Assembly (NCBI GenBank): GCA_963704885.1
Contig: CAVPIB010000001.1
Location: forward strand, 160,001-224,000
Reading direction: 5' to 3'
From: an uncultured Actinomycetes bacterium
GTDB taxonomy: Bacteria; Actinomycetota; UBA4738; HRBIN12
Length of the DNA: 64,000 nt
The stretch's first letter is position 1. Every line of letters begins with the position of its first letter. The notes below the pieces were generated by a model. That model ran no database searches, had not been told where the DNA came from, and saw only the letters and a program-made list of their open reading frames with translations. Shown here one piece after another: positions 13,495 through 60,373 of the stretch. A program made the translations under genes and the position numbers.

Positions 13495-14141
13495 AGACCG
13501 GCGAACGCCAGTCACTCGAAGCGCCCGAACCCGCATCCCGCAAACCCACGAAGGCCGGCGTGCTCGGGTTCCTGGGCGAACTTCCGGGCCTGATCCTGAT
13601 GGCCTTCCTGCTGGCCATACTGATCCGGACATTCCTGTTCCAGGCGTTCTTCATCCCCAGCCCGTCCATGGAACCGACGCTCATCCAGGGCGACCGGGTG
13701 TTGGTCAACAAGATCCCCTACTACTTCCACGACCCCCGGCGCGGGGACATCGTGGTCTTCGAGAACCCCAACCCGAACGCGATACCCGATCGAGGACTGG
13801 TCGGCGGATTCCTCCATTGGCTCTTCCAAGGCCTGGGCGTAGAGCAACCCGAGAACGAGGACTTCATCAAGCGGGTGATCGGCGTGCCGGGCGATACCGT
13901 GCAGGGCAAGAAGGGGTTCGTTCTCGTGAACGGGGAGAAGATAGACGAGCCCTACCTCACGCAGAAGACCCAGCCGTTCGACGCGGTCACCGTTCCGGAG
14001 GGCAAGCTCTTCGTGATGGGCGACAACCGCGGCAACTCACTCGACTCGAGGTTCACTCTGGGTTTCGTGCCGATCGACAAGGTGATCGGCAAGGCCTTCA
14101 TCAAGATCTGGCCTCCGACACGGTTCGGTTTGCTTCACTAG
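13491..14141 (+). CDS. lepB: signal peptidase I
   Basis: IPSPSMEPTL, FIKRVIG, MGDNRGNSLDSR; real start ATG 13491 within track ORF 12768..14141. Confidence 0.95.
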   Translation: MKTGERQSLEAPEPASRKPTKAGVLGFLGELPGLILMAFLLAILIRTFLFQAFFIPSPSMEPTLIQGDRVLVNKIPYYFHDPRRGDIVVFENPNPNAIPDRGLVGGFLHWLFQGLGVEQPENEDFIKRVIGVPGDTVQGKKGFVLVNGEKIDEPYLTQKTQPFDAVTVPEGKLFVMGDNRGNSLDSRFTLGFVPIDKVIGKAFIKIWPPTRFGLLH

Positions 14142-14161
14142 TCTGGGTCAGACTAGTGAAG
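14133..14161. repeat. ACTAGTCTG-N3-CAGACTAGT palindrome copy 1
   Basis: CTTCACTAGTCTG-GGT-CAGACTAGTGAAG, 13-bp perfect stem at the lepB/ctpE convergent junction. Confidence 0.9.
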
Positions 14162-14166
14162 AGCGG

Positions 14167-16503
14167 CTAGTCGCTGGAGGCCTGCGGTCCGATCGGTCGA
14201 TCCCCGGGAACGAACAGCCGTGCGAACGACCACACGATCGCCGCGATACCGAACGCGGCCAGCCACAAGATGTAGTCCGGCGGATCAAGCGCGAAGAAGG
14301 TCTGCGTGGCAGGGAGCAGGAGCGCCAGTGAGAAGAGCCCGGCCATCGACCAGATCAGAGTCAGGCGGGCGCGGCTGAGCGGCGCCGCGATGATCGACAG
14401 CACCAAGAGTCCGATCCAGGTGAGCACCATGACGGCGCTCGTCCGAGCCTGCTCCAAGGTCACGCCGTCCTGGTCCTTGACCAAGGCGTACGCGAGGAAC
14501 GTAGCGATCGCCGCGAGCGCGCCCGCCGGCACGGCGAACCGCGCCACCCTACCCACGAACCCGGGCCGGAACCGCTCGGTGTTCGGCGCGAGCGCCAGGA
14601 AGAACGACGGGATCCCGATCGTTACCGCGCCGATCAATGTGAGATGCCGCGGCAGGAACGGGAACGCGAACCCCGCCACGCCCACAGCGAGGGAAAGCAG
14701 CATGGCGTAGACGGTCTTGGTGAGGTACAGGCCGGACGTGCGTTCGATATTGCCCAGCACACGCCGACCCTCCGCCACCACGTGCGGTAACGCGTCGAAG
14801 TTAGAATCCAACAGCACGACCTGCGCGACGGCGCGCGTGGCGTCGCTCCCCGAACCCATGGCCACGCCCATGTCTGCCTCCTTCAGCGCGAGCGCGTCGT
14901 TCACGCCGTCGCCCGTCATAGCCACCACGTGCCCTCGGGAACGGAGCGCTGCGACCATGGCGCGCTTCTGGTGCGGCGTCACCCGGCCGAACACGGACGG
15001 ACCCTCGAGCGCGGCTGCCATGCCGGCCTGGTCCTCGGGCAGGATCCGAGCGTCGACGGCATCGGCCGCACCCGGGAGCCCCAGCTGCGACGCGATCGCC
15101 CCGACCGTCCGCGGATCGTCCCCTGAGATCACCTTCACGGCGACGCCTTGCTCTTCGAAGTACCGCAAGGTGCGTTCCGCCTCGGGACGCAGCGAGTCGC
15201 GCAACGTGACCACGGCGGCCGGCCGGATGTCGGCGGGCAGCTCGGCACCGACATCCGTGCCCGGCGCATGCGCCAGTACGAGCACCCGCGCCCCCGAGGA
15301 GGTCGCGTCTTGGACCAGCGCCTGCCCGACGTCATCTCCCCGGAGGAGGACGTCCGCGCCGCCGACGTACCACGACCCGTGCCCGTCGAACGAGGCCGCG
15401 GTCCATTTCCTGGCAGAGGAGAACGGAACCGAACCGACCGGCGACCACCCGGTGGGGGCTGCCGGGAACCGCTCCCGGATCGCGGACATGGTGGCATTCG
15501 GATTCGGATCGTCGGCCGCGATCGCGGCGAGCGCTTGCGCTACGGGCGCCTCCACATCGAGCGGCTCGACGGCGATCACCGACAGTTTCCCCTCTGTAAG
15601 CGTGCCTGTCTTGTCGATGCAGAGCACGTCGATGCGCGCGAGCCCCTCCACCGCCGGCAGCTCCTGCACCAACACGTTGCGTCTGGCCAACCGCACCACG
15701 GCGACGGCGAACGCGATGCTCATCAAGAGCACCAGCCCTTCCGGGACCATCGCCACCGTGCCGGCGACGGCACCGCTCACGGCCACCCGCCAGGAGTCAT
15801 GGTGGCGGATCTGACTGATGAACAGCAGAGCCGCCGTCGGCACTATCGCGATCGTGACCCACCGCAGGATCTGGTCGACGCCCTCCCGCAGCTCCGAACG
15901 GGTGAGCGCGAATCGACGGGCCTCCTCGGCCAGCCGAACCGCATAGGCGTCCGCGCCGACCGCGGTCGCGAGCATCCGGCCGGCGCCGGCCGATACGAAC
16001 GAGCCCGAGAGCGCCGCGTCATCCGGGGTCTTGCGCACGGCGTCCGACTCCCCGGTCAGTAGGGACTCGTCCAGCTCGAGGCCGTCGGAGGAAAGGACCG
16101 TGCCGTCAACCACGACCTGGCCTCCGGGCGCCAGATCGAGCACGTCGTCGAGCACCACGCGATCGACCTCGAGTTCCCGCACGTCGCCGTCGCGCACCAC
16201 GCGAGCCTTGGGCGCGGTGAGCACGGTAAGGGCGTCGAGCGTTCGCTTCGCCCGAAGCTCCTGCACGATGCCGATGCCGGCGTTCGCGATGAGAACGAAA
16301 CCGAAGAGCGCGTCTTGGATCGGACCGACCACCAAGATGACCGCGAGCATCGCGCCGAGCAGCGCGTTGAACCGCGTGAATACGTTGGCGCGCACGATCT
16401 GGCCGACCGTGCGCGTGCGGGTGCGCGGCACCACGTTCACCAGGCCTCGCGCCTCGCGATCGGCCACCTCGCTCGCGGTGAGACCCCGCTCGGGATCCGT
16501 CAT
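14167..16503 (-). CDS. P-type cation-transporting ATPase (CtpE-like)
   Basis: LTGES, VPEGL, DKTGTLT, ISGD, TGDGVND motifs. Confidence 0.93.
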   Translation of the reverse strand: MTDPERGLTASEVADREARGLVNVVPRTRTRTVGQIVRANVFTRFNALLGAMLAVILVVGPIQDALFGFVLIANAGIGIVQELRAKRTLDALTVLTAPKARVVRDGDVRELEVDRVVLDDVLDLAPGGQVVVDGTVLSSDGLELDESLLTGESDAVRKTPDDAALSGSFVSAGAGRMLATAVGADAYAVRLAEEARRFALTRSELREGVDQILRWVTIAIVPTAALLFISQIRHHDSWRVAVSGAVAGTVAMVPEGLVLLMSIAFAVAVVRLARRNVLVQELPAVEGLARIDVLCIDKTGTLTEGKLSVIAVEPLDVEAPVAQALAAIAADDPNPNATMSAIRERFPAAPTGWSPVGSVPFSSARKWTAASFDGHGSWYVGGADVLLRGDDVGQALVQDATSSGARVLVLAHAPGTDVGAELPADIRPAAVVTLRDSLRPEAERTLRYFEEQGVAVKVISGDDPRTVGAIASQLGLPGAADAVDARILPEDQAGMAAALEGPSVFGRVTPHQKRAMVAALRSRGHVVAMTGDGVNDALALKEADMGVAMGSGSDATRAVAQVVLLDSNFDALPHVVAEGRRVLGNIERTSGLYLTKTVYAMLLSLAVGVAGFAFPFLPRHLTLIGAVTIGIPSFFLALAPNTERFRPGFVGRVARFAVPAGALAAIATFLAYALVKDQDGVTLEQARTSAVMVLTWIGLLVLSIIAAPLSRARLTLIWSMAGLFSLALLLPATQTFFALDPPDYILWLAAFGIAAIVWSFARLFVPGDRPIGPQASSD

Positions 16504-17876
16504 GGTTCGCGTTCGGCGGCCCACGACTCGAGCAGAGCGAACGCCTCGTCCTCGGGGATCGGCCCACGTTCCATACGGAGCTCCATGAGGTAGGCGAGCG
16601 CCTCCCCCACGAGCGGGCCGGGCGCGAGGCCAAGGCGTTCCATGACCTGGCCACCGTCGAGAGGCGGGCGAAGGGCGTCCAGGTTCTCCTCCTCGGCCAG
16701 GCGGGCGATCCGTTCCTCCAGCTCGTCCTGCAGCTCCTCGAGCCTCTTCGCCTTCGCCTCGTTCCGTGTGGTGCAGTCCGCGCGCGTCAGCTGGTTCAGC
16801 CGATCGAGCAACGGACCCGCGTCCCGCACGTAGCGTCGGACCGCGCTGTCGGTCCAGCCGTCGCCGTATCCGTGGAACCGCAGGTGGAGCTCGACGAGGG
16901 TATGGACGTCGTCTATCACGGCGTTCGGGTAGCGCAGCTCCTTCAAACGCGCCTCGGCCATGCGAGCACCTACCACGTCGTGGTGATGGAACTGAACGCC
17001 CTCCGGCGTGATCGATCGTGTCTTGGGCTTCCCGACGTCGTGCAGAAGCGCCGCCAGGCGCAGCACCAGGTCCGTCGGGTCGCAGCGCTCCACCACGGCG
17101 AACGTGTGACGCAGCACATCCTTGTGCTGGTGCACCGGGTCCTGCTCCAGCTGCAGCGCCGAGAGCTCGGGGAGGAACAGATCCGCCAGGCCGGTGTCCA
17201 CGATCAGGGCCAGCCCGACGGGGGCACCGGCGCCGAGGAGCAGCTTGGACAGCTCATCCTGGATGCGCTCGGCGGACACGATCGAAAGACGCTCACGCAT
17301 CTGTGTGATCGCCGTTACCACGCGCGGAGCCGGCTTCACACCGAGCTCCGCCACGAATCGTGCGGCCCGGAGCATCCGTAGGGGATCGTCCGAGAACGCC
17401 ACCTCGGGCTCGAGCGGCGTGTCCAGCTCCTTGGCGGCCAGGTGCTTCACGCCGCCGAACGGGTCGACGAACGCGCCGTCCGGCAACCGCACCGCCATCG
17501 CGTTGATCGTGAAGTCCCGGCGCGACAGATCGGTCTGGATGTCCTTGGCGAAAGTCACCGCAGGTTTGCGGTGCTCCTCCGCGTAGACCTCCTCGCGGAA
17601 CGTGGTGATCTCTAGATGGCGACCATCCTTCATGGCCCCCACCGTGCCGAACCTCACCCCGACCAGGTACTGGCGATCGGACCAACCTCGCAGGACGCGC
17701 GTGACCTGGTGCGGCGCGGCATCGGTTGCGAAGTCCAGGTCGAAGTCTGTGGCCTCCCGGCGCCTGCCCATGATCGCGTCGCGGACGACGCCGCCCACCA
17801 GGTACAGCTGGTGCCCGGCGGCGGCGAACCTCTCGCCCAGCTCTGCGGCCTGGGGGTCGACCTCGATCGTGGTCAT
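16500..17876 (-). CDS. cca: CCA tRNA nucleotidyltransferase (with HD domain)
   Basis: LVGGVVRD, DLDFAT, DLSRRDFTINAM, DDPLRMLR, LLHDVGK; start ATG 17876. Confidence 0.93.
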   Translation of the reverse strand: MTTIEVDPQAAELGERFAAAGHQLYLVGGVVRDAIMGRRREATDFDLDFATDAAPHQVTRVLRGWSDRQYLVGVRFGTVGAMKDGRHLEITTFREEVYAEEHRKPAVTFAKDIQTDLSRRDFTINAMAVRLPDGAFVDPFGGVKHLAAKELDTPLEPEVAFSDDPLRMLRAARFVAELGVKPAPRVVTAITQMRERLSIVSAERIQDELSKLLLGAGAPVGLALIVDTGLADLFLPELSALQLEQDPVHQHKDVLRHTFAVVERCDPTDLVLRLAALLHDVGKPKTRSITPEGVQFHHHDVVGARMAEARLKELRYPNAVIDDVHTLVELHLRFHGYGDGWTDSAVRRYVRDAGPLLDRLNQLTRADCTTRNEAKAKRLEELQDELEERIARLAEEENLDALRPPLDGGQVMERLGLAPGPLVGEALAYLMELRMERGPIPEDEAFALLESWAAEREP

Positions 17877-17931
17877 GACGGCCTCACGATACCCTTCGCC
17901 CTTCGCGAGCCGGGCACGATACCGTGCCGAG

Positions 17932-18303
17932 ATGCCCACATGGCTCGGGTTCATATGGACCGTGCCCAACACGGTGATCGGACTGGTCCTGGGGCTGTTC
18001 ACGTTCCAGGTGCCCCGGCTGGACGGCGCCGTGATCTTCGACAAGACGCCGCGTGGGCTCACCGCGTTGATGCCGCACATGCGCCGCACGGCCATGACGA
18101 TCGGCTTCGTGATCGTTTCCGCGGCTCCGCTCACGGGCACGCTGTCGATTCATGAGCGGCATCACATCAAGCAGTACTGCCTGCTCGGTCCGTTCTTCCT
18201 GCCCGTCTACTTCCTGCTGGCGATCCCCTTCGGCTACCGTCGGCACCCGTTGGAGATCCGAGCGAAGCGCGCCTCCGGAGAGCTGCCCTCGATACCGAGC
18301 TAG
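17932..18303 (+). CDS. small membrane hypothetical protein with HExxH
   Basis: WTVPNT, IHERHHIKQY, HPLEIRA; TACCGT -10 6 nt before ATG. Confidence 0.7.
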   Translation: MPTWLGFIWTVPNTVIGLVLGLFTFQVPRLDGAVIFDKTPRGLTALMPHMRRTAMTIGFVIVSAAPLTGTLSIHERHHIKQYCLLGPFFLPVYFLLAIPFGYRRHPLEIRAKRASGELPSIPS

Positions 18304-19406
18304 AACATCGCACCGGCGGCGCCGGGCATGGCGGCTCCGCGTTCCATGACCCCCAAGAGCGCCAGGTCGAAGTCGTGAGGGTTCGTGGAGGTGCGTCGCG
18401 CCTCGTCCTCCGTGACCAGCCCTTGCTTGACCAGCTTCACCAGCGCCTGGTCGAACGTCTGCATGCCGTAGTAGTCGCCCTCGGCGATCACCTCGGGGAT
18501 CGAGTCGGTCTCGTCAGGATCGGCGATCCGGTCGAACACGCGGCCGGTGTTGACCAGGACCTCCACCGCAGGCACTCGGCCCTTGCCGTCGGCGCGCGAG
18601 ACGAGCCGTTGCGAGACGATGCCCCGGAGCGATCCTGCGAACGACGTCCGGACCTCGCGCTGCTGTTGCGGCGGGAACAGGTCCAACAGACGGTTGATCG
18701 TCTCCACGCAGTCGATCGTGTGCAAGGTCGAGATGACGAGGTGACCGGTCTCGGCCGCCTGGATCGCTGAGAGGGCCGATTCGGGATCGCGGATCTCTCC
18801 GATGAAGATCACGTCGGGGTCTTGACGGATCACGTGCCGCAGCGCGTTCGCGTAGGAATCGGTGTCGATCCCGATCTCGCGTTGCTGGATGATCGAGAGC
18901 GCGTCGTCGTGGACCACCTCGATGGGGTCTTCCACGGTCACGATGTGCGTGCGACGCGTGGAGTTGATGTGACCGATCATGGACGCGATCGTCGTGGTCT
19001 TGCCGGTCCCGGTCGGTCCCGTGATCAACACTAGACCGCGCGGCGAGTCTGCCAGCGTTCGCATCACCGGCGGCAACCGGAGCTCCTCGAAGGTGGGGAT
19101 CTCCGAGCGAACGCGCCGGATGGCCAGTCCCACCACGCCGCGCTGCCGGAACACGTTCACCCGGAAGCGGCCGACGCCCGCGAGCGTGTAGCCCAGGTCC
19201 GCCTCGCTGTGATCCTCGAATTCCCTCTTCTTGTGCTCCGACATCAGAGCCTGGCCGAACGCCTCGGTATCGGCCGGCGTGAGGGTCGTGTACTGGGTGG
19301 GCTGCAGATCTCCATCGACGCGGACGAAAGGAACGTTGCCGACCTTCAGGTGCAGGTCGCTCGCCCCCCGCTCGACCGTGTGCCGGAGCAGTTCGTTGAT
19401 CTCCAT
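18300..19406 (-). CDS. pilT: type IV pilus retraction ATPase PilT/PilU
   Basis: ASDLHL, GRFRVN, GPTGTGKTT, VEDPIE, RQDPDVIFIGEIRD, AAETGHLVISTLH, GMQTFDQ. Confidence 0.92.
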   Translation of the reverse strand: MEINELLRHTVERGASDLHLKVGNVPFVRVDGDLQPTQYTTLTPADTEAFGQALMSEHKKREFEDHSEADLGYTLAGVGRFRVNVFRQRGVVGLAIRRVRSEIPTFEELRLPPVMRTLADSPRGLVLITGPTGTGKTTTIASMIGHINSTRRTHIVTVEDPIEVVHDDALSIIQQREIGIDTDSYANALRHVIRQDPDVIFIGEIRDPESALSAIQAAETGHLVISTLHTIDCVETINRLLDLFPPQQQREVRTSFAGSLRGIVSQRLVSRADGKGRVPAVEVLVNTGRVFDRIADPDETDSIPEVIAEGDYYGMQTFDQALVKLVKQGLVTEDEARRTSTNPHDFDLALLGVMERGAAMPGAAGAMF

Positions 19407-19556
19407 CGGTTCGACTCCCATCACGCCGCGCAGGTGAATGCCGCGGCTCGTCCCGCCTACGGGAGAACCATCGGCACGTTCCTGCGCCGACCGAAGCCTT
19501 AGTTGGGAACCACCCGCGACCAGGCTGGCCGCGCCCGTACGCCTAGAATCGCCGCG

Positions 19557-20057
19557 ATGACCAGCACTCCGAGGGGCGGCAAGCGAGGCGGGTCCACGAA
19601 GGGTGGAGACGCTCCCAGGCGTAGGAAACGCCCGGAGACGCGCACCGAGGTCTCAGCGGGAGGCGTCGTCTACCGTCGAGAGGATGATGCCGTCGAGGTG
19701 GTGCTGGCTGCCCGTCGCACGCGACGAGGGGACCTGGCCTGGGGTCTTGCGAAAGGTGGCATCGAACCCGACGAGTCCAGGGAACAGGCCGCCGTGCGCG
19801 AGGTGCGCGAGGAGACCGGCATCGAGGCCCGGATCGAGGAGTCCCTAGGGGAGACGCGGTACTTCTATGTCTGGGAGGGCGTCCGGGTCCGCAAGACCGT
19901 CCACTTCTTCCTGATGCGCGCGACCGGGGGCGATCCCAGCGACCGCGACGACGAGATGGAGGACGTCCGTTGGTTCCCGTTGGATCGGGCACTCAAGCGC
20001 GCCGCCTATCGCGGTGAGCGCGAAGTCCTGACGCGCGCGGCCGAACATCTCCGATGA
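19557..20057 (+). CDS. NUDIX hydrolase
   Basis: Nudix box KGGIEPDESREQAAVREVREETG; conserved position before DUF6049/murJ. Confidence 0.92.
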   Translation: MTSTPRGGKRGGSTKGGDAPRRRKRPETRTEVSAGGVVYRREDDAVEVVLAARRTRRGDLAWGLAKGGIEPDESREQAAVREVREETGIEARIEESLGETRYFYVWEGVRVRKTVHFFLMRATGGDPSDRDDEMEDVRWFPLDRALKRAAYRGEREVLTRAAEHLR

Positions 20058-22078
20058 ATCGACGCTGGGCAGCGGGCGGCCTGACGATCGCACTCTCGCT
20101 CCTGTCGAGCGTCTCGGCAGTTCAGACGGTCCGTGCCCAGGAGGCCTCGAACGTCTCCCTGACGCTCGTGTCCCAAACTCCCTGGGGAACGCTCGAAGAT
20201 CCCGTGATCGAGATCGCCGTCAGAGCCCGCAACGGCAGCGGGGTTTCGCTGGGCGATCTTTCGACCGGGATCACCATCGGCGGCGCCGTTCGTTCCCGCA
20301 GCGTCTACGAGGAAACGCTCACCGGTGGGCCGGGGCTGGCGATCGATGCCACGACCATCTCGCAAGAGGGAACGCTCGATGCCGGCGGCGAACGTCGGTT
20401 CCGGCTTGAGGTCGACCTGTCCGCGGTCGGCGACATCAGCCAGACCGACTCGCTCGTCTATCCGCTCCGGGTGGACCTGAGGAGCGCCGGGACACCGGTT
20501 GCCCTGATCGACGTGCCGATCATCTTCCTGGTCCGCGAACCCGAAGTCCCGCTCCTGCTCTCCACGACGGTCGAGCTGTCCGCGCCCATCGCGTTCGGCC
20601 CCGACGGATCGCTGGCGGATCCGGGGTTCGAGGAAGCCGTAAGGCCCGGCGGCACGCTCGGGGCCCAGGTCGCCGCGCTCCACCGGATGGTCACCGAGGT
20701 GACTCAACCGATCACCCTGGTCATACAGCCATCCCTCCTGGATCAGCTCGAGCGCCTGTCTGACGGATACGAACGCGCAGACGGAACGCAGGTGTCCGCG
20801 GGATCGGGCGCGGCGGCGGAAGCAGAGACGCTCCTGCGATCCCTCCGCGAGACGGTGGCGGTCTCCGTCGTCCAGGTGGTCGCGCTGCCCTTCTCGGGGC
20901 CGACGGTTCCCTCCCTCCTGTCGAGCGGCCTCACGAGTGACCTGGCTGCCCAGCAAGCCCGGGGGATCGAGACGGTTCGAGCGGTGCTCGGCGTTGACCC
21001 GGCATCCACAGTGGCAAGGCCGGCGCTCGGTGCGCTCGATGACGGATCAGTCGCCGCGCTCGCCGCCCTGGGAGCCACCACGATCCTCGGCGACGCAGGC
21101 ACGGTCGAACGGCCCCCTCAGCCGAACGGATTCGCGCCCCCACCTACGGAATCGCTCGCCGTGGGCGGTCAGACGGTCGCCCTGGTGCTCCCCGATCCTG
21201 GCGTGCAGACACTCCTGTCGACCACGGGCTTCCTCGACGATCCGGTTCGTGCGGCGCAGGCGAGCCTGGGCGAACTAGCCGTCATCTGGCGCGAACAGCC
21301 GGTTCCTTCCTCGCCACGAGGTGTGGCCATCTCGCTCCCGAGCGGCCTCCCCGCGAGGTTCTGGGGCGCGTTCCTGGGGCGCTTGGCCGTGGCGCCCTTC
21401 CTCCGCTCCTCAGACGCCGAGGATCTCGTGACGCAGATCCCGCCGGCCGTCGCGCCCATCTCTCTCGCGGCGCCCTCGACCGCCAGGTTCACGCCCGCGT
21501 ACGCCGATGCCATCAAGCGCGAGCGCCGCGACCTCCTGGCGTTCCGTTCGATGCTCGTCGGGGAAAGCTCCCTCCCCGACCGGCTAGCGCGCAACCTGCT
21601 CTTCGCGGAGTCCGCCCAGTACCTGGACAACGAACTCGCCGGGCGAGCATGGATCGACCAGGTGAATCGCGTCACCGAAGGCATCTTCGCGCGGGCCGTC
21701 CCAGACACGAGTCAGGTATTCACGTTCACGTCCGAAACCGGGACGATCCCGCTCCTGATGGGTCAGCCCGCCTCCGTTCCCCTCCGGTTCACGCTCCAAC
21801 TCCGCTCCAACCGCTTCCGGTTCCCAGGCGGGGACCAACAGAGCGTGACGCTGACCGAGCCTGACCAGATCGTCACGTTCGACGCCACGGCCCTCGCGAC
21901 CGGGCAAGGGAAGATCCAGGTGATCGTGCGCGCCCCCTCGGGACGGCCGATCGGACAAACGCAGATGACGGTCCGCTCCACGTCGGTGAACCGCATCGCG
22001 GTCGCCGTCACCGTGCTGGCGGCGCTCATCCTTGTTGGCCTGTGGTCGAGGAGGTTGTTCCGACGTCCAACGGCCTAG
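20054..22078 (+). CDS. DUF6049-like secreted, C-terminally anchored protein
   Basis: Signal peptide, C-terminal TM plus RR; conserved actinobacterial position between NUDIX and murJ. Confidence 0.75.
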   Translation: MNRRWAAGGLTIALSLLSSVSAVQTVRAQEASNVSLTLVSQTPWGTLEDPVIEIAVRARNGSGVSLGDLSTGITIGGAVRSRSVYEETLTGGPGLAIDATTISQEGTLDAGGERRFRLEVDLSAVGDISQTDSLVYPLRVDLRSAGTPVALIDVPIIFLVREPEVPLLLSTTVELSAPIAFGPDGSLADPGFEEAVRPGGTLGAQVAALHRMVTEVTQPITLVIQPSLLDQLERLSDGYERADGTQVSAGSGAAAEAETLLRSLRETVAVSVVQVVALPFSGPTVPSLLSSGLTSDLAAQQARGIETVRAVLGVDPASTVARPALGALDDGSVAALAALGATTILGDAGTVERPPQPNGFAPPPTESLAVGGQTVALVLPDPGVQTLLSTTGFLDDPVRAAQASLGELAVIWREQPVPSSPRGVAISLPSGLPARFWGAFLGRLAVAPFLRSSDAEDLVTQIPPAVAPISLAAPSTARFTPAYADAIKRERRDLLAFRSMLVGESSLPDRLARNLLFAESAQYLDNELAGRAWIDQVNRVTEGIFARAVPDTSQVFTFTSETGTIPLLMGQPASVPLRFTLQLRSNRFRFPGGDQQSVTLTEPDQIVTFDATALATGQGKIQVIVRAPSGRPIGQTQMTVRSTSVNRIAVAVTVLAALILVGLWSRRLFRRPTA

Positions 22079-23727
22079 ACCCCGACCCGATCGACCTGCC
22101 GCCCGAGGATTCTCGCGGCGCTTTCGTTCGGAACACGGCCGTCATGTCTTTGGGCACCACGCTCTCCCGCCTGACCGGGTTCCTACGCTTGTCGGTCCAG
22201 ACGGCCGCACTGGGCGTCACCGTCAGCGCTCTCGGCAACACTTACACGACCGCGAACACAACGCCGAACATCGTCTACGAGTTGGTGCTGGGTGGGATCC
22301 TCACATCGGTCTTCGTTCCGGTGTTCGTGGAGTGGCTGCAGAAGCACGGCCGCGACGAGGCCTGGCTGTTGGCCGACCGCGTGCTCACCATCGCGCTCGT
22401 CGTGCTCGGGACCGTCGCGCTCCTGGGTGCCGTCTTCGCGCCTCAGATCATCCGGCTCTACCTCGTCGCCTCCGACGCGCCCGACAAGGAGCAGCAGGTG
22501 GCGCTGGGGGCGTACTTCTTGCGGTGGTTCATGCCGCAGATCGTCTTCTACGGGATCGGCGCGGTTGCCACCGGCCTGTTGAACGCCGAACGCCGGTTCG
22601 CTGCGCCCATGTTCGCGCCCATCCTCAACAACTTGGTCGTCATCGCTTCGTTCAGCATCTACGCCGTTCTACTGGGTAGCGGCGTGCCGTCCGTTGACGA
22701 CATCACGTTCGCGGAGAAGACCGTTCTCGCGGCGGGGACCACGCTCGGAGTGATCGCCATGACACTCGCCCTGTGGCCCTCGTTGCGTCGCTTGGGTTTC
22801 CGGTGGCGCCTGCGGTTCGACTGGAACCACCCGGGCGTGCGTCGGCTGGGGAAGCTGGCCCTTTGGGTCGTCGTCTACGTGGTGGCGAACCAGGTCGCCT
22901 ACGTGATCATCATCGTCCTGAGTGGACGGTTCCCACCTGGCGGTTACCAGATCTACGCGAGCGCGTTCATCCTGTTCCAGCTCCCGTACGCCATCTTCGC
23001 CGTCTCGATCTTCACCGCTCTGTTGCCGGCGATGTCGAGCCGGTGGGCGGACGACGATCCCACAGGGGTACGAACCCTCTTCTCCCGTGGCTTCCGGGAC
23101 ACGACCGTCATCATCGTCCCCGCGGCGCTCGGCTATCTGGTACTCGCTCTCCCGATCGTCAAGTTGCTACTTCAATACGGGAACGCGGGTCCCGCCGACT
23201 CGGAGGTGATCGCTCGAACGCTCCAGGCTTTCGCCGTCGGGTTGCCGTTCTTCGCCGCGTTCCAACTCTGCACCCGAACCTTCTACGCCATGCAGGACGC
23301 GCGAACACCGGCGCTCGTGAACGTCGCGGCGGCGGTCGTGAATATCGTCGCCGACCTGGCGTTCGTGTTCTGGTTCGGATGGGACGTGCCCGGGCTCGCG
23401 CTCGGCCACGCCACCTCTTACGCGTTCGCGACCGCCGCGTGCCTGATCCTCCTGCGAGGCCGCATAGGCGGCATCGACGGGAGGCGCGTCGTCCGCACGG
23501 TGGTGAGGGTGATCCCGGCCTCCGCGGCCGCGGCGGTGGCCGCGTTCCTAGCCTCCGAAGGGGTGCAGGCGCTACTAGGCTCCGATACGGGAACCCCCGG
23601 GCGGTTCGCTCAGGTGGCGGCGGCGATCGTGGCCGGGTTGCTTGCGTTCGTGGCCTCGGCGCTTATCTTGCGCATCGAGGAGGTCGATGACGTCAAGGAC
23701 GCGGTCCTCAGGAGGTTCCGCGGATGA
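22042..23727 (+). CDS. murJ: lipid II flippase MurJ
   Basis: SRLTGFLR, ANTTPNIVYELVLGG, FMPQIVFYG, APILNN, RTFYAMQD. Confidence 0.95.
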   Translation: MVEEVVPTSNGLDPDPIDLPPEDSRGAFVRNTAVMSLGTTLSRLTGFLRLSVQTAALGVTVSALGNTYTTANTTPNIVYELVLGGILTSVFVPVFVEWLQKHGRDEAWLLADRVLTIALVVLGTVALLGAVFAPQIIRLYLVASDAPDKEQQVALGAYFLRWFMPQIVFYGIGAVATGLLNAERRFAAPMFAPILNNLVVIASFSIYAVLLGSGVPSVDDITFAEKTVLAAGTTLGVIAMTLALWPSLRRLGFRWRLRFDWNHPGVRRLGKLALWVVVYVVANQVAYVIIIVLSGRFPPGGYQIYASAFILFQLPYAIFAVSIFTALLPAMSSRWADDDPTGVRTLFSRGFRDTTVIIVPAALGYLVLALPIVKLLLQYGNAGPADSEVIARTLQAFAVGLPFFAAFQLCTRTFYAMQDARTPALVNVAAAVVNIVADLAFVFWFGWDVPGLALGHATSYAFATAACLILLRGRIGGIDGRRVVRTVVRVIPASAAAAVAAFLASEGVQALLGSDTGTPGRFAQVAAAIVAGLLAFVASALILRIEEVDDVKDAVLRRFRG

Positions 23728-24137
23728 CGAGCATGAAGAACCGGTTCCAGCAGGAAGCGGGCGCCGTCGGCTGGCTGATCGTCATGTGGCTGACGTTCGT
23801 CGTCCTTGTCGGCATGGTCTTGATGGACGCCGGCTCGATAGCGTTCACCAAGTTCCGGCTGGCGGACGTGGCGAGCAGCGCCGCGACCCAGGGGGCCAAC
23901 GCCTACCGGTCGAGTCACGATCCGGCCGGAGCTTGCCAGGCGGCCTCAGACCAGATCGCGACCGAGGATCCCGCCGCCAAACTCGCCATCGCGGGCTGCT
24001 CGGTCGACGTGCGGACCGGGGTCGTGACGATCAAGGTCCGCAAACAAGCCAGCACGATCCTGGCCGGCCGGTTCGGCTTCACCAAGCACTACACGAAGGT
24101 CACCGCAACCGAGTCCAACGGCCCGAGCACGCTGTAG
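23724..24137 (+). CDS. TadE/TadG-like pseudopilin (pilus assembly) protein
   Basis: EAG|A prepilin-like N-terminus, one TM, DVASSAATQGA, two Cys. Confidence 0.6.
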   Translation: MTSMKNRFQQEAGAVGWLIVMWLTFVVLVGMVLMDAGSIAFTKFRLADVASSAATQGANAYRSSHDPAGACQAASDQIATEDPAAKLAIAGCSVDVRTGVVTIKVRKQASTILAGRFGFTKHYTKVTATESNGPSTL

Positions 24138-24147
24138 CGTTCCAAGC

Positions 24148-24753
24148 GTGACGGATCCCGAGAGCGACGAAGACCTCGTCCATCGGTACCTGCAGGGCGA
24201 CGCCCAAGCGTTCACAGAGTTGGTGACGCGACACGAGTCCCGGGTGTACAACGTTGCGCTGCGCGTGCTGGGCGATCCCGACGACGCGCGCGACGCCGCG
24301 CAGGACACGTTCTTGACGGTCGTCAGGAAGCTCTCACAGTTCCGCGGGGACGCGGCGTTCACGACGTGGCTCCACCGCGTCACCGTGAACGCCTGCTACG
24401 ACATCTTGCGGAAGCGCCGCCGCCAGCCGATGCTCCGGCTGGCTCCAGAGGGTGACGAGCCCGTGCCCGAACTCGGACCGCCCGTCGCGGACCACGCAGA
24501 TGCCGCCGTCGGATCGATCGACGTGGCGCGCGCGCTCCAGTTGATCCCAGAGGAGTACCGGGTGGTCCTGGTGCTGGCGGACGTGCAGGACCTGCCGTAC
24601 GAGGAGATCTCGCGGGTGCTGGACGTGCCGATAGGCACCGTCAAGTCGCGGGTCCATCGGGGCCGCATCGCGCTCGGACGGGCTCTAGGGCTGCCCGAAG
24701 AGCCTCCTCGGGAACCCGCCCCCGCCCCCCGGCCGTCGGAGAGAGAGTCATGA
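24148..24753 (+). CDS. sigM: ECF RNA polymerase sigma factor (SigM-like)
   Basis: FRGDAAFTTWLHRV, GTVKSRVHRGR; conserved locus upstream of trxB. Confidence 0.85.
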   Translation: MTDPESDEDLVHRYLQGDAQAFTELVTRHESRVYNVALRVLGDPDDARDAAQDTFLTVVRKLSQFRGDAAFTTWLHRVTVNACYDILRKRRRQPMLRLAPEGDEPVPELGPPVADHADAAVGSIDVARALQLIPEEYRVVLVLADVQDLPYEEISRVLDVPIGTVKSRVHRGRIALGRALGLPEEPPREPAPAPRPSERES

Positions 24754-25499
24754 CGCACCCCGAGGAGCACCTCGCCGGATACGTCGATGCAAGCCTGTCA
24801 CCGGATGAGCGGAGGGCCGTCGACGCGCATCTCGCCGATTGCGAGAGATGCCGCCGAGAGGTCGCGGTCGCCGCGGGTGCGAGGGCGGCGCTCGGATCGC
24901 TGGCCGAGGTCCCGGCGCCCTCGGACGTCGCGACGACCGCGCTCCGCGAAGCGGGAGCGGCCAAGCAGACCCGGCCGGCCGACGGCACCCCCGCTTGGTA
25001 CCGCATCGCCGGAGTGGCCGCGGCCGTCGCGGCAGGACTCCTGGTCGTGTCGCTCGTTCTGCCGCGGGTGGGCGACAGCTCGAACGACGCGGCACAGCGT
25101 GAGAGCGGCGGGGCGGGAGGCGAGGACGCCGGGGTGATCGCCGAGGCCGCGGGCTTCCTCGAGATCCAGGACGTGGACTACGACGATGCCTCCCTGTCGT
25201 CGTTCGCTTCCTCGTTCAAGTCGGCCGACGGTGCAGACGGCGCCGCCTCCGCCCCAGAGTCACTGCGACTCGGAACCCCACAGCAGACCCAGAAGGCGTT
25301 GCGCTGCATCGCGAAGTCGGCCCCAGATGAGACCGGAGAGCTGACCCGGCTGATCAAGGCGCGGTTCCAAGGCACCCCGGCCTATCTGGCGGTCTTCCTG
25401 GATGGACCCGGGGCGGGTCAACCGCCCGACGCCGTCTCGATCTGGGTCCTGGCGACCGACGGCTGCGCGATCCTCTCGTACTCCAACGCTCGGCTGTAG
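24750..25499 (+). CDS. zinc-finger (ZAS, HxxxCxxC) anti-sigma factor
   Basis: HLADCERC, single TM, coupled to the sigma gene. Confidence 0.88.
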   Translation: MTHPEEHLAGYVDASLSPDERRAVDAHLADCERCRREVAVAAGARAALGSLAEVPAPSDVATTALREAGAAKQTRPADGTPAWYRIAGVAAAVAAGLLVVSLVLPRVGDSSNDAAQRESGGAGGEDAGVIAEAAGFLEIQDVDYDDASLSSFASSFKSADGADGAASAPESLRLGTPQQTQKALRCIAKSAPDETGELTRLIKARFQGTPAYLAVFLDGPGAGQPPDAVSIWVLATDGCAILSYSNARL

Positions 25500-25552
25500 C
25501 CCCGCGCCGGGAATAGGAGGCCGTTCTTGCCTATGGGAGGATTGGACGCGTC

Positions 25553-26485
25553 ATGACCGAGACCCGCAACGTGATCGTGATCGGATCGGGCCCGGCGGGC
25601 TTCACGGCCGCGCTCTACGCCGCTCGCGCGAACCTGGCGCCGCTCGTCCTGAAAGGGCTCGAGGCCGGTGGACAGCTCATGCTCACCACCGACGTCGAGA
25701 ACTACCCGGGCTTCGCCGATGGCATCTTGGGACCCGAGCTCATGGAGCAGATGGAGAAGCAGGCCGAGCGCTTCGGCGCCCAGATCCTGCCCGTCCACGT
25801 GACACGGGTCGACCTGTCCGGCCGTCCGTTCGGCGTTTGGTCCGGAGATCAGGAGTGGCGCGCGGAGACCTTGATCGTGTCGACGGGTGCGAGCGCCAAG
25901 TGGCTGGACGTCCCCGGCGAAGAAAGGCTCCGCGGGCGCGGCGTGAGCGCCTGCGCCACATGCGACGGATTCTTCTTCCGCGATCGCGAGCTGATCGTCG
26001 TCGGCGGCGGTGACACCGCCATGGAGGAGGCAACGTTCCTCACGAAGTTCGCCAGCAAGGTCACCATCGTGCACCGCCGCGACGAGTTCCGCGCGTCACC
26101 GATCATGGTGGATCGGGCGTTGGCGAACCCGAAGATCGAGGTGGTCTGGGACACGGTCGTCGAGGAGATCATCGGAGACGACGCCGTTACGGGCGTTCGG
26201 CTGCGCAACGTGAGGACGGACCATGAGCGCCAGATGAAGACGGACGGCGTCTTCATGGCGATCGGTCACACGCCGAACACGGCGCTCTTCGAGGGGCAGC
26301 TCGAGCTTCAGGGCGGCTACGCCGTGGTGCAGGAGCCCCGTACCCTAACCAGTGTCGAAGGGGTTTTCGCAGCCGGCGACGTCACCGACACCATCTATCG
26401 TCAGGCGGTGACGGCCGCCGGCCAGGGCTGCAAGGCGGCGATCGACGCCGAGCGGTTCCTGGAGGAAGAGGCACACGCGTCCTGA
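25553..26485 (+). CDS. trxB: thioredoxin-disulfide reductase
   Basis: GSGPAG, CATCDG, GGGDTA, HRRD, FAAGDV. Confidence 0.97.
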
Positions 26486-26542
26486 GCCGGGAATCCCCCA
26501 GCGGTGAGAAGCGTTCGAGGAACCACCGAGAAGGAGACAGAG

Positions 26543-26872
26543 ATGGCCAACATCGGCAACGTGAACGACACCGACTTCCAGTCCAACGTCTTAGATTCCG
26601 AGACCCCCGTCCTGGTGGACTTCTGGGCAGAGTGGTGCGTCCCGTGCCACATGGTCTCCCCCGTTGTGGAGGAGATCGCCCAGGAGAAGGGCGAGACGCT
26701 CAAGGTCGCCAAGCTCAATATCGACGACAACCCCGACGCAACGCGGACCTACGGCGTGATGAGCATCCCCTCGCTGATCCTGTTCAAGGGCGGCAAGGAG
26801 GTCGCGCGAGTGGTAGGCGCCAAGCCGAAAGACGCGATCTTGCGCGACGTCGAGCCCCACCTGGTCGGCTGA
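26543..26872 (+). CDS. trxA: thioredoxin
   Basis: DFWAEWCVPC, SIP; AAGGAG SD. Confidence 0.95.
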   Translation: MANIGNVNDTDFQSNVLDSETPVLVDFWAEWCVPCHMVSPVVEEIAQEKGETLKVAKLNIDDNPDATRTYGVMSIPSLILFKGGKEVARVVGAKPKDAILRDVEPHLVG

Positions 26873-26935
26873 GCCCAACCCGCTCGAGCGGCGGCGCGGT
26901 TGCCGCCTTCGATGGCGCAGCACAGACTGGTCGGC

Positions 26936-27916
26936 GTGCGAATCTACCGCCTCGGCGACCGGGGTCCCGAGATCCGCGACATCCAACAGCGCCTGGTGGC
27001 GTTCGGTGGACGCGTGGATCAACCCGAACTCGACGGCACGTTCGGACCCTCAACGGAGGCTGCCGTCCGAGCCTTCCAGGCCGAACGCAGCCTTAAGGTC
27101 GACGGGCTGGTGGGTCTGGACACCTGGGGTCAGCTCGTCGAGGCTGGCTACCGGTTGGGTGATCGGACCCTCTACCTGCGTTCTCCGCAGCACCGCGGCG
27201 ACGATGTGCGGGCCCTTCAGCGCAAGCTGAACATCTTGGGCTTCGACGCCGGCAAGGAAGACGGCCTCTTCGGTCCGCGCACCGACCGAGCTCTCCGCGA
27301 GTTCCAGCAGAACGTGGGAGAGGAGCCCGACGGGATCGCCGGGATCGAAGCGCTCGCCACGCTCGAACGCATGCGTCCCTCAGGATCGGGCCCCGGCCGC
27401 GCGATGGTCAGGGAGGAAGAATCCGTTCGGACGATGCGCTCCTCGATCGAGGGGCAGATCGTGGCGATCGATCCCGAGGGGCGGTCGGATGAGGCCCGGC
27501 TGGCTAGCTACGCTGTTGCTTCTGCGCTCGCCGACAGGCTGGTGGCGATGGGAGCCAAGCCGGCGCTCCTTCGCGGTCCCGACGACGATCCGTCCGTATC
27601 GGACCGGGCTCGCTCCGCGAACGAGATGGGTGCTTCGGTATGCGTTTCGCTACAGATACCGATCGCTGGCGCCGAGACGGCGTCGACCTGCATCTACTTC
27701 GGGAACACGACCACCTACTCGCCTGCCGGTAAGCGCCTCGCCGAGCTCGCGGCCGAGGAGTTGGAGCGGGTGCTCGCATGTCCCATCGGCGTAGAACGGC
27801 TCACCGGCGCCATCCTGCGTGAGACTCGCATGCCCGCGGTACAGATCGACACGTCGCAGGCCGACCGGATCGGCCCGGCGATCGCCGCCGCCCTGAGCCG
27901 CTTCTTCGCAGGATAA
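26936..27916 (+). CDS. CwlM-like protein: two PG-binding domains plus degenerate amidase_3
   Basis: DG.FGP.T repeats, LGDRTLY, ILRETRMPAVQI; start approximate (26900-26936). Confidence 0.8.
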   Translation: MRIYRLGDRGPEIRDIQQRLVAFGGRVDQPELDGTFGPSTEAAVRAFQAERSLKVDGLVGLDTWGQLVEAGYRLGDRTLYLRSPQHRGDDVRALQRKLNILGFDAGKEDGLFGPRTDRALREFQQNVGEEPDGIAGIEALATLERMRPSGSGPGRAMVREEESVRTMRSSIEGQIVAIDPEGRSDEARLASYAVASALADRLVAMGAKPALLRGPDDDPSVSDRARSANEMGASVCVSLQIPIAGAETASTCIYFGNTTTYSPAGKRLAELAAEELERVLACPIGVERLTGAILRETRMPAVQIDTSQADRIGPAIAAALSRFFAG

Positions 27917-28061
27917 CCGCTGGTCAGGGCCGTTTCCGGAGGCGGCCGGCAAGGGTCAGCACCAGTCCGAGGATCGCGCCCATCGCGACGGCTCTGATCG
28001 CCCGTTCCTGTTCGCTGGGCGGTATGGGTTCGGCTGACACGGTCCGACTATGCTACGCGCC

Positions 28062-29018: not shown

Positions 29019-29134
29019 GCCGACCTTCATAGCGGACCTCCGAACCTTCTGAGCCAAGCCACCTCTCGGACCCCGAGCAGGCGCGATGCTACGCTTGGTG
29101 TTCGCTCGCACGTCTCATCACGAGCGCCTCCACC

Positions 29135-31305: not shown

Positions 31306-31314
31306 CCTGCACGT

Positions 31315-31343
31315 TCATACTAGTCTGAGGCAGACTAGTATGA
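31315..31343. repeat. ACTAGTCTG-N3-CAGACTAGT palindrome copy 2
   Basis: TCATACTAGTCTG-AGG-CAGACTAGTATGA, 13-bp perfect stem at the ddl/parB convergent junction. Confidence 0.9.
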
Positions 31344-31344
31344 G

Positions 31345-45988: not shown

Positions 45989-47210
45989 CGGGCTCGGCGG
46001 TTTCGGGCAGCCGGACCTTCTTGAACGTCCGCCAGAGCAGCAGGTCGTAGACGCACTTCACCGCCCCGGCCACGACGAACGGCGCGCCCACGGCCACGTT
46101 CTGCATGAGGGCGGCGCCGATCGCGGGTCCGAACGGCCTTGCCACGTATCGCGATGTGTTGGTGAACGCCGCCGCCGCCGCCCGCTCCTGCGGGTCGACC
46201 ATGGCCGCGATGTAGGCCTGCCGGGTGGGAACGTCCATCTGCGACAGCGCGAACCGAGCGAGCAACACGGCGATCGCCAGCTCCAGCGTGGGCATGAAGG
46301 GCACGAGCGCGAGCAGCACGTTCGACGGCAGGTGGGAGAAGACCATGGTGTTCAGCAGGCCGAACCGCGAGCCTATACGTGCTGCCACGATCGACGAGCC
46401 CGCCTGCAGCAGCCCTCCTGCGAACACCACGACGCTCATGAGCTGCGGCGACGCGCCGAACGTGCGCTCGAACCAGAACACGATGAACGTCATGACCACG
46501 AAGCCGCCCGCGAACGCGTCCAGCGCGAAGAGCGAGCTCAGCTTCAGGACGTTCGAGCGAGAGCGCTGTAGAGGTCGCTGAGCATCGGCCGTTCCGCCAG
46601 CCTCGATGCCCAGGGACAATCTACGAACTAGTATGAGACAGACTAGTGCGCCGACGGGGAACAGCAGGAGCCATCGCTGATCGTTTGGCGCGCCGTGCCA
46701 GACGTCGCGCAGGAACGCCGGACCCCCCGCTGCCAGGGCGCCGACGGCGCCCGCCAGATATGCGATCGCGTTGTATCGGCCGAACACTCGGATCCGGACA
46801 TCGGATGGTGCCTGACCGATCATGGCCTGTTCGAGCGACGTGATCGGCCCCGATTCGTTCGCGTCCGTCGACATCATGCCGGTGAGCGCGACGAGGATCA
46901 GGACTGCCAGCGCGTCGGTGAGCGCGAAGACCGCGCCAGCCAGCCCGAAGGCCACCAGGAGTGCCGCGTACAGCCGCCGCCGCCCGATGCGCTCGGCGAA
47001 GATGCCAACGCCGATGGTGGCCAGCGCCATACCCACGAGCATCGCGGTGAACACCAGTCCCACCTGGGCGTCGGAGAGATCGCTGGAGGCGAACGCCGTC
47101 GCCAGCACCACCGTTGCGAAACCGTAGAGCGCGGCTCTGATCGCTTGGACCCACAGCAGCCGTCGCAGGTCGCGTTCGATGCCCTCCGCGGACGGTTCCG
47201 TGCTGTTCAC
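45963..47210 (-). CDS. MFS transporter
   Basis: AERIGRRR, LEQAM, FALDAFAGG, SQMDVPTRQAY; TATCGT -10 6 nt before GTG. Confidence 0.88.
   Translation of the reverse strand: MNSTEPSAEGIERDLRRLLWVQAIRAALYGFATVVLATAFASSDLSDAQVGLVFTAMLVGMALATIGVGIFAERIGRRRLYAALLVAFGLAGAVFALTDALAVLILVALTGMMSTDANESGPITSLEQAMIGQAPSDVRIRVFGRYNAIAYLAGAVGALAAGGPAFLRDVWHGAPNDQRWLLLFPVGALVCLILVRRLSLGIEAGGTADAQRPLQRSRSNVLKLSSLFALDAFAGGFVVMTFIVFWFERTFGASPQLMSVVVFAGGLLQAGSSIVAARIGSRFGLLNTMVFSHLPSNVLLALVPFMPTLELAIAVLLARFALSQMDVPTRQAYIAAMVDPQERAAAAAFTNTSRYVARPFGPAIGAALMQNVAVGAPFVVAGAVKCVYDLLLWRTFKKVRLPETAEPATPLRPSG
46627..46647. repeat. palindrome copy 3 (ACTAGTATG-AGA-CAGACTAGT) inside the MFS CDS
   Basis: 17/18 match to consensus arms; reads GCA CTA GTC TGT CTC ATA CTA GTT CGT AGA on the coding strand. 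Confidence 0.8.
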
Positions 47211-58953: not shown

Positions 58954-58966
58954 ACTGGAACGCGAA

Positions 58967-59066: not shown

Positions 59067-59156
59067 CGGATTCATCCGAGCCGACTACGCGGATCAGCCA
59101 TCACAGGCCGTACCATGTCGGGGTCCATCGTCGAGATCACAGATTCGGAGGCGTCG

Positions 59157-59648: not shown

Positions 59649-59682
59649 CCGACCTACCAACTGAGCGACCTATCATCGGGCC

Positions 59683-60345
59683 GTGCATCGGTTCATCGCG
59701 GTCCTGGTCGTGGCGGCCTGCTCGCTGGTGCCCTCCGTGGCCTCGGATGCCGCACCCCGCCGCCTTCCGGTGTTCGAGGCCGATGTGTCGATGTTGGATC
59801 GAGCCGCCCGGGAGCTGATGATCGGGCGCTCCTGGCACGCCGGCTGTCCGGTACCGCTGCGTGATCTCCGGCTGATAGAGCTCACCTACTACGGCTTCGA
59901 CGGACACGCGCATCGGGGCCAGCTGGTCGTCCATCGTTGGTACGCCGCTGGATTCGTCGGGGTGTTCCACCGGCTCTACGACGCCCGCTACCCGATCAGA
60001 AGGATGCGACTGGTCGACCGCTACGGCGCCGACGACTCGCGCTCGATGGCGGCAGATAACACGTCGGCGTTCAACTGCCGGCTTCGCGCAGGGTCTTCCA
60101 CAGAGTGGTCTCAGCATGCGTACGGGCGCGCCATCGACGTGAACCCGGTGGAGAACCCCTTCGTCACGCCCACTCACGTATCTCCGCCCGCGGGGATCCA
60201 CTACTTGGATCGAACGCAGACCCTGCCGGGCATGATCCACCTTCGCGACCGGGTCTGGTGGGCGTTCCACGCGATCGGGTGGGTGTGGGGCGGCACCTGG
60301 ACAGGCACGATCGACTACCAGCACTTCAGCGCGAACGGGCGGTAG
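59683..60345 (+). CDS. M15 family peptidoglycan metallopeptidase (D,D-carboxypeptidase-like)
   Basis: NTSAFNCR, SQHAYGRAIDVNP, WGG.W..DYQHF. Confidence 0.88.
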   Translation: MHRFIAVLVVAACSLVPSVASDAAPRRLPVFEADVSMLDRAARELMIGRSWHAGCPVPLRDLRLIELTYYGFDGHAHRGQLVVHRWYAAGFVGVFHRLYDARYPIRRMRLVDRYGADDSRSMAADNTSAFNCRLRAGSSTEWSQHAYGRAIDVNPVENPFVTPTHVSPPAGIHYLDRTQTLPGMIHLRDRVWWAFHAIGWVWGGTWTGTIDYQHFSANGR

Positions 60346-60352
60346 AGGTCTA

Positions 60353-60373
60353 ACTAGTCTGGGTCGGACTAGC
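60353..60373. repeat. palindrome copy 4 (ACTAGTCTG-GGT-CGGACTAGC)
   Basis: 16/18 match; at the M15/M23 convergent junction, contains the M23 stop. Confidence 0.8.

Follow-up and report, generated by a model that had tools for sequence, protein, structure and literature searches.

Which protein, if any, reads a 21-bp palindrome that recurs around the replication genes of an uncultured Actinomycetes bacterium, and why do its copies stand where they do? The question is raised by a stretch of 64,000 nucleotides, here called the window (positions 160001 to 224000 of contig C1 in the assembly G000), which carries four copies of a sequence with the consensus nCTAGTCYG-N3-CRGACTAGn. Given its conserved placement at a PadR-family gene, its co-occurrence with that gene, and its restriction to one lineage, we tie the palindrome to the encoded protein and consider it reasonably likely to be the site bound by a PadR-family protein of two domains and 182 amino acids (aa) that is specific to this lineage and that would regulate itself and have dispersed copies of its site at gene ends. 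The four window copies are ordinary representatives of a genome-wide family of such sites. The analysis pairs an unnoticed DNA word with its most likely reader in a class-level soil Actinomycetota lineage known only from metagenomes.

The palindrome family and its candidate reader

The G000 assembly (3.015 Mb in 20 contigs, 97% complete) was scanned for the palindrome with up to four mismatches allowed, which gave 70 matches, about 68 of them real; two matches lack CTAG cores and are probably due to chance. An earlier interpretation of the window, made from its letters without database searches (the sequence-only reading), had described conserved arms around a free spacer, and the genome-wide set has the same character. 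Of the 124 CTAGTCYG half-sites in G000, 102 fall within such palindromes. The flanks (positions −19 to 0 and 22 to 41) do not depart from the background in composition and have nothing in common among copies, and hence the copies are not the ends of insertion sequences or of miniature inverted-repeat transposable elements (MITEs). All large contigs carry copies, at about one per 38 to 44 kb, on a set of 20 contigs not ordered along the origin-terminus axis. The window contains four copies versus about 1.4 predicted from the genome average, a mild excess in a window picked for this feature. Motif copies are also included in near-exact repeats between small and large contigs (C2, C3, and C4, with the acs gene; C9 and C11; C12, C13, and C1:24-26 kb), which points to a strain mixture or to collapsed duplications (contamination estimate, 4.5%).

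The gene that we link to the palindrome lies outside the window, 270 kb away, at G000:C1:491267-491815. Its 182-aa product matches Pfam family PF03551 over residues 10 to 84 (E value of 1.5e-20; 73.4 bits against a cut-off of 27). The AlphaFold model (predicted local distance difference test score of 82) predicts the two-domain build of subfamily 1, with an N-terminal winged helix and a C-terminal helical dimerization domain that includes long helices at residues 113-141 and 147-181. The best fold matches of the model are 8jxk (template modeling score of 0.64 to 0.73), 8ioi, and 5x11, and they include Rv0047c/NapM, Rv1176c, and Bacillus subtilis PadR bound to its operator. The tyrosines Y22 and Y45 and the wing arginines R70 and R71 are invariant in the alignment of orthologues and may be equivalent to DNA-binding residues of B. 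subtilis PadR, an equation taken solely from alignment offsets.

The palindrome recurs at this gene's own promoter. In G000, two degenerate copies 25 bp apart are located 16 to 41 bp upstream of the PadR-family gene, downstream of the GC hairpin of the previous gene. At 20 of 20 orthologous loci from nine genera, two of them from the unpublished genomes G008 and G029, one or two copies (with at most four mismatches) are found about 15 to 90 bp upstream of the gene. Among 67 orthologous loci from public metagenome-assembled genomes (MAGs), 64 have a copy within 100 bp upstream, and the three misses are one locus without upstream sequence and the two most distant orthologues, with about 50% identity. 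No copy was found in the remaining ~900 bp of these 67 loci, and the motif is absent from six of six distant homologue loci. Based on this conserved placement, we suggest that the protein would control its own gene via one or two copies over the promoter, with one dimer binding each palindrome and each winged helix reading one CTAGTCYG half-site; judging from the sequence, the operator may overlap the −10 element. At the PadR promoters of the window's genus (L001 to L012), the first operator copy is usually CTAGTCCG-N3-TGGACTAG, and a TANNNT-like hexamer (TAGACT or TAGAGT) comes after it.

The sequence-only reading had raised the prospect of a DNA-binding protein that co-occurs with the palindrome, and the PadR-family gene behaves in this way over 251 genomes of the order (including the unpublished G008, G029, G102, G154, G183, and G206). 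Motif and gene occur together in 57 of these genomes and both are absent from 171; nine genomes, which are 73 to 93% complete, have the motif only, and 14 have the gene only. Among the first 41 relatives, an orthologue with at least 54% identity was present in 20 of the 22 genomes with the motif versus 1 of the 19 without it. Whole genera agree as well: nine of nine genomes in the window's genus have the motif and nine of nine the gene, the corresponding counts in g27 are 29/33 and 29/33, and g29 and g31 each score 0/20 for both. G018 carries a one-mismatch copy at its own PadR promoter; the idea that its gene is broken was rejected, as the flagged TAG is probably a natural stop codon and the 251-genome tally reports no broken gene.

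The range of both components is narrow. Of 274 genomes from outside the lineage in a sample of the phylum, 2 (one of them the unpublished G361) have a single copy each, and a reversed control pattern matches 5; the class-level sample covered only the eight families of this order. The records that bear an orthologue are all MAGs of uncultured Actinomycetes or Actinomycetota.

The surroundings of the PadR locus are partly conserved. A selenocysteine tRNA gene (Rfam RF01852, 68 to 73 bits) adjoins the locus in three genera, at L001:711-801 (about G000:C1:490477-490567, minus strand), at L014:1691-1782, where a second, weak match stands just before it, and at L018:1654-1744. This tRNA gene is the reason for a conserved 50-nucleotide stretch upstream of some operators, and the Rfam scan of the PadR loci returned no other family. 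Directly upstream of the PadR-family gene is a gene for a 127-aa secreted protein without a Pfam family (L001:987-1370, G000:C1:490753-491136), the C-terminal sequence of which is found again in this position in two other genera (L015 and L016); on the downstream side is a gene for a HAD-family hydrolase. GC-rich hairpins without a T-tract occur in G000, for example, at C1:491150-491172, before the PadR operator.

The copies in the window and at gene ends

The four palindromes reported by the sequence-only reading are all present, and 0 of 100 dinucleotide-preserving shuffles of the window gave a match. The seven ACTAGT hexamers of the window likewise all fall inside the copies, with 2.35 expected and no shuffle reaching seven. 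Copy 1 (14137-14157; ACTAGTCTG-GGT-CAGACTAGT, no mismatches) is located at the convergent junction of lepB, encoding an S26 signal peptidase (13560-14141, plus strand), and a P-type ATPase gene (14167-16524, minus strand), and copy 2 (31319-31339; ACTAGTCTG-AGG-CAGACTAGT, no mismatches) is at that of ddl (30358-31305, plus strand) and parB (31345-32238, minus strand). Copy 4 (60353-60373, two mismatches) lies at the convergent junction of an M15 peptidase gene (59683-60345, plus strand) and an M23 peptidase gene (60369-61169, minus strand), and copy 3 (46627-46647, one mismatch) lies in the middle of a gene for a major facilitator superfamily (MFS) transporter (45963-47210, minus strand). Pfam matches (S26/P-type ATPase, Ddl/ParB, MFS, and M15/M23) agree with the gene names proposed earlier, and the convergent 3′ junctions claimed for three copies are confirmed for copies 1, 2, and 4. 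Two of these copies share letters with a neighboring gene: the TAG within the left arm of copy 1 is the stop codon of lepB, and the right-arm TAG of copy 4, read on the minus strand, is that of the M23 peptidase gene.

This placement is general. With genes called by a simple codon-model caller of our own (2,831 genes, 90% coding), the 70 matches in G000 were assigned to 38 convergent gaps, 20 positions between co-directional genes, 11 genic positions, and 1 divergent gap; convergent gaps represent 392 of 2,811 junctions and only 35 kb of 3 Mb. Copies between co-directional genes are almost always directly behind the upstream stop codon. Of 104 facing gene 3′ ends within 300 nucleotides of a copy, 49 stop exactly at the TAG of a motif arm and a further 7 stop at a TGA made by arm and spacer, and at several convergent junctions both genes terminate inside one palindrome. 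The picture is similar in three other genera (G017, G024, and G020), where 40 sites comprise 28 convergent, 8 tandem, 4 genic, and 0 divergent ones and where 32 of 64 facing gene ends stop at a motif TAG.

The simplest reading of this overlap is that genes extend up to the first stop codon that is unable to mutate, i.e., the motif's own. A tie between the stop-codon overlap and translation was considered and dropped, as the gaps are tiny anyway and compaction against an immovable site is simpler: the convergent gaps of G000 have a median of 24 bp if they contain the motif and of 12 bp if they do not. In practice, the motif can serve to recognize true gene ends in these genomes, and 49 TAG stop codons are explained by it. 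Many convergent gene pairs in G000 overlap, reflecting tight packing genome-wide, and TAG accounts for 893 of the 2,823 stop codons in our gene calls. Motif-bearing convergent junctions also adjoin longer gene runs (7 versus 5 genes; P = 0.002), and their flanking genes have more typical codon usage, observations on which we do not rely because spurious short open reading frames may inflate the controls.

A classical PadR regulon was rejected, as the neighbors of the copies are housekeeping genes with no relation to one another. The 18 tandem copies are followed by rpsJ, ruvX, metG, ilvC, a response regulator gene, and others, and the intragenic copies involve acs, purB, murD, and a ubiA-family gene. 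The sequence-only reading had taken the palindrome for a sequence-conserved site of a dimeric DNA-binding protein rather than a promoter operator of the neighboring genes, and the sequence data examined here are in line with such a role.

Several individual copies bear signs of selection. Both arms of copy 2 are kept at the same ddl/parB junction in nine of nine other species of the genus, at a locus where the coding sequences are only 72 to 80% identical and the spacer and flanks no longer align. In one of these loci (L036; G010:C6:239900-240900), an insertion of about 700 bp, apparently coding, separates the motif, which has remained at the ddl end, from the gene on the parB side. At the lepB/ATPase junction of copy 1, the motif is present in six of eight other species, in three of them in degenerate form, and the remaining two of the eight retain just the left half with the stop codon. 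Of 13 genomes of the genus, 6 (including the unpublished G008) have a copy inside murD at three or fewer mismatches. It is encoded as CTA GTC TGG TTC AGA CTA, and few codons in the genome are as rare as CTA and AGA.

The MFS copy has a different history. As the sequence-only reading had observed, it forces rare codons: it is read as GCA CTA GTC TGT CTC ATA CTA GTT, then CGT AGA, and CTA, TGT, ATA, and AGA each occur at 1.4 to 2.9 per 1,000 codons. The copy is absent at 10 of 10 orthologous 3.7-kb loci of the genus, and five alignable relatives (one of them the unpublished G008) have ordinary GC-rich codons and a similar peptide in its place. Its absence from the orthologous loci marks it as a recent gain in G000, newly built where it stands at a price of five rare codons.

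As the palindrome would fold into a 9-bp stem with a 3-nucleotide loop (−10.6 kcal/mol), the copies might instead be RNA hairpins that stabilize 3′ ends, terminators without a U-tract, or mobile palindromes akin to repetitive extragenic palindromic (REP) elements or MITEs, independent of the PadR-family protein; their 3′-end location resembles that of REP elements, and copies 1 and 2 do extend to 13 bp, as had been claimed. That extension is not general, since flank pairing of at least 3 bp occurs in only 5 of 66 unique copies versus 2.2% of shuffled flank pairs. It is the sequence rather than the pairing that is conserved: positions 8 and 14 read TA in 37 copies, CA in 15, TG in 8, and CG in 6, with about 4.5 CG expected under independence, so that the half-sites vary independently and there is no covariation. 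There is no T enrichment at positions 22 to 30 of the G000 copies, and a consensus scan of positions 13500 to 32500 flags neither copy 1 nor copy 2 as a terminator. The Y1 transposase family PF01797, to which REP-associated tyrosine transposases (RAYTs) would belong, was not found in the 97%-complete genome by a search whose control matched 6 of 14 reference genomes. Furthermore, the flanks share nothing, the copies keep apart rather than cluster, and the tight link to the PadR-family gene and its promoter would be left unexplained. We therefore regard this explanation as very improbable, and the REP-like or terminator alternative offered by the sequence-only reading is abandoned. The copies do appear to be uniformly spread, which that reading had associated with plain terminators, but they are neither confined to convergent ends nor covarying in their arms. 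The combined patterns argue that the copies would act as double-stranded protein sites rather than as hairpins.

Spacing, the origin, and possible functions

The copies avoid each other. On the four largest contigs of G000 (at most four mismatches, with the double operator at the PadR-family gene left out here and in the counts below), only 2 of 55 gaps are shorter than 10 kb versus 11.4 expected, a value that is the same for random positions and for random 3′-end junctions, and 0 of 5,000 simulations were as low; the gaps have a coefficient of variation of 0.69 versus 0.95 expected. At two or fewer mismatches, no gap among 46 was below 10 kb in G012, from the same genus (8.4 expected; 0 of 5,000 simulations), and none among 28 in G017, from another genus (4.7 expected; P = 0.0012).

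This spacing rule bears on the arrangement that first drew attention to the window. The stretch contains dnaA, dnaN, gyrB, gyrA, parA, and parB. The segment 37207-39931 (plus strand), made up of dnaA (37207-38625), dnaN, and the presumed oriC gap that separates the two genes, provides context only and is not part of the element. The distances of the copies from the origin given by the sequence-only reading are numerically right when measured from the dnaA-dnaN gap. An origin-centered system, with sites set symmetrically around oriC to organize or regulate the origin region, would fit four copies in a 64-kb origin window where ~1.4 are expected, the copy that abuts parB, and the fact that NapM, a relative of the motif-linked protein, is described as antagonizing DnaA (PMC6377630). 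The excess is not significant, however (our Poisson estimate is ~0.06), in a window chosen for the feature; the gene of the PadR-family protein is 270 kb away; and copies occur at similar local spacing on all large contigs, with a comparable run at C1:25867, 38061, and 55256. The claim of symmetric placement around oriC thus finds no support, and we give an origin-centered system almost no credence. The symmetry of the window copies (17.2, 15.3, and 13.7 kb apart) is a by-product of quasi-regular spacing, because the copies keep apart. The role in chromosome organization that accompanied this claim fares better and is still plausible, being backed by the depletion of short distances between copies.

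Apart from the operator, about 65 further copies are dispersed directly behind stop codons, mainly at convergent junctions and rarely less than ~10 kb apart, and their presence would be tolerated only at places that polymerase need neither start from nor cross. We tentatively favor the view that these dispersed copies may serve as fixed anchoring points for a NapM-like organizing or bridging protein, because of the relation to NapM, the spacing rule, the copies made or kept inside long co-directional runs, and the conservation of single copies. A more specific version, which we regard as possible yet rather doubtful, is a bacterial counterpart of boundary elements: a sequence-specific protein of the PadR family, akin to NapM, that bridges or blocks at high-information palindromes in convergent gene ends at least ~10 kb apart would divide the chromosome into topological or transcriptional units, and genes would have grown up to the immovable sites so that their TAGs became stop codons.

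The main alternative to anchoring is a roadblock or insulator, in which the bound dimer would halt RNA polymerases arriving from either side and thereby replace intrinsic terminators. Placement directly behind stop codons and the convergent preference would be expected of such a device, a palindrome would be effective from both sides, and the tiny convergent gaps (medians of 12 and 24 bp without and with the motif) leave no room for ordinary terminators; one copy also stands where a terminator is usual, between tuf (named from its position and length) and rpsJ. However, the motif is missing from all but 38 or 39 of the 392 convergent junctions; murD, purB, acs, and a ubiA-family gene have copies within them, the one in murD being conserved in 6 of 13 genomes; and other copies precede ruvX, metG, and a sulfatase gene by 6 to 19 bp, where a block would silence needed genes. 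The scarcity of copies less than 10 kb apart is also not predicted. We consider a roadblock unlikely on balance.

The dispersed copies could also be decoys that buffer the free concentration of an effector-responsive PadR repressor, the only true target of which would be its own operon. The conserved self-regulation, the parking of sites away from promoters, and a copy number that varies widely between genera are compatible with this idea, which in our judgment is nonetheless quite improbable: weak collective selection would not predict that single copies are held at the same junction, as copy 2 is in nine of nine species, and decoys have no need to stay 10 kb apart.

Finally, TANNNT is the actinobacterial −10 consensus, and the half-site cTAGTCTg holds such a hexamer pointing into the antisense strand of the neighboring gene, so that the palindromes might be bidirectional antisense promoters repressed by the PadR-family protein, for which a 3′-end location would be suitable. 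A T at position 8, as in 47 of 70 copies, yields TAGTCT, and an A at position 14, as in 56 of 70, yields it on the opposite strand. Yet position 8 is C in 22 of 70 copies, which destroys the hexamer in copies that are conserved all the same; there is no flanking −35 or extended −10 signal; and the scan of 13500 to 32500 finds no sigma-70 promoter at copies 1 and 2, the two copies that it covers. It would be surprising if this explanation proved correct.

Returning to the reading that we prefer, a PadR-family protein with its own operator and dispersed sites, several points weigh against it or against parts of its evidence. Kinship among the genomes inflates the phyletic association, and the lineage is known from MAGs alone. 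Fourteen genomes have the protein without an exact core motif, and these may carry degenerate sites missed by the exact pattern. Exact cores range from 0 to 37 among gene-carrying genomes, and copies at two or fewer mismatches number 10 in G057, 33 in G017, and at least 50 in G012, with about 68 in G000 at four or fewer, a range that sits uneasily with an indispensable architectural role. The simple gene caller means that single junction classes may be wrong. The spacing tests hinge on the mismatch threshold, and the three are not independent, as G012 has some sites in common with G000. Lastly, the 9-bp stem of −10.6 kcal/mol would form in RNA, and it may have an added RNA-level effect.

Comparison with known systems

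A full-text literature search with both half-sites yielded nothing but primers and unrelated constructs, and a search of the literature on PadR or nucleoid-associated motifs at convergent genes, with supplements outside its scope, found no such system. The closest solved relative of the motif-linked protein by sequence is 8JXK (Rv0047c, NapM; E value of 1.7e-11 over residues 6 to 142), and the two are alike in their length of 182 aa, N-terminal winged helix, and C-terminal helical dimerization domain. In the parts of the sources available to us, NapM is a PadR-family nucleoid-associated, DNA-bridging protein with 573 sites in chromatin immunoprecipitation sequencing (PMC13340245) and a DnaA antagonist (PMC6377630), it is said to be restricted to Mycobacterium, and those parts name no specific palindrome and no 3′-end placement for it. 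The motif-linked protein is a NapM paralogue and not the orthologue: a second G000 gene, at C1:157321-157905 (L169:522-1106), ~2.1 kb to the left of the window, encodes the true NapM/Rv0047c orthologue (E value of 2.8e-37 to 8JXK, full length), the two G000 proteins are 28% identical, and most genomes of the order have a gene of the NapM-orthologue type, whether the motif is present in them or not. The orthologue gene in G000 lies close to the origin region, and Rv0047c is presumably also near oriC.

The B. subtilis PadR/padC operator complex (PDB 5X11) provides the second comparison. It belongs to the same family (PF03551) and fold, and its motif is of matching size, the PadR dimer reading an 18-bp palindrome symmetrically (PMC5728393). 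B. subtilis PadR controls one or a few promoters, whereas here only the gene's own promoter looks like a classical operator and ~65 other sites lie at 3′ ends. For a PadR regulator, the pattern is unusual in almost avoiding promoters, in favoring gene 3′ ends with shared stop codons, in its conservation at junctions, and in its avoidance of distances below 10 kb.

Systems with tens of palindrome copies for a dimeric protein, set by chromosome position rather than by regulon, are represented by MatP/matS, Noc/NBS, SlmA/SBS, and ParB/parS. The protein family differs here, being PadR, and no restriction to one chromosome region is seen; to our knowledge, 3′-end placement, stop-codon overlap, and a spacing of at least 10 kb have not been described for any of these systems. 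Short palindromes at 3′ ends and between convergent genes are known from REP sequences and bacterial interspersed mosaic elements with their RAYTs and from the uptake-sequence pairs of Neisseria. Compared with the REP-type elements, the palindromes described here have no RAYT gene, no clusters, and no stem covariation, and their sequence is conserved at the same junctions across families of an order and linked to a PadR-family gene. If the dispersed copies are indeed anchors or insulators, they would constitute a sequence-defined system of chromosome or transcription-unit boundaries. The protein family is known; what looks new is the combination of a palindrome of a NapM paralogue, self-regulation, and some 30 to 70 copies at gene ends that share stop codons with the genes and keep their distance from one another.

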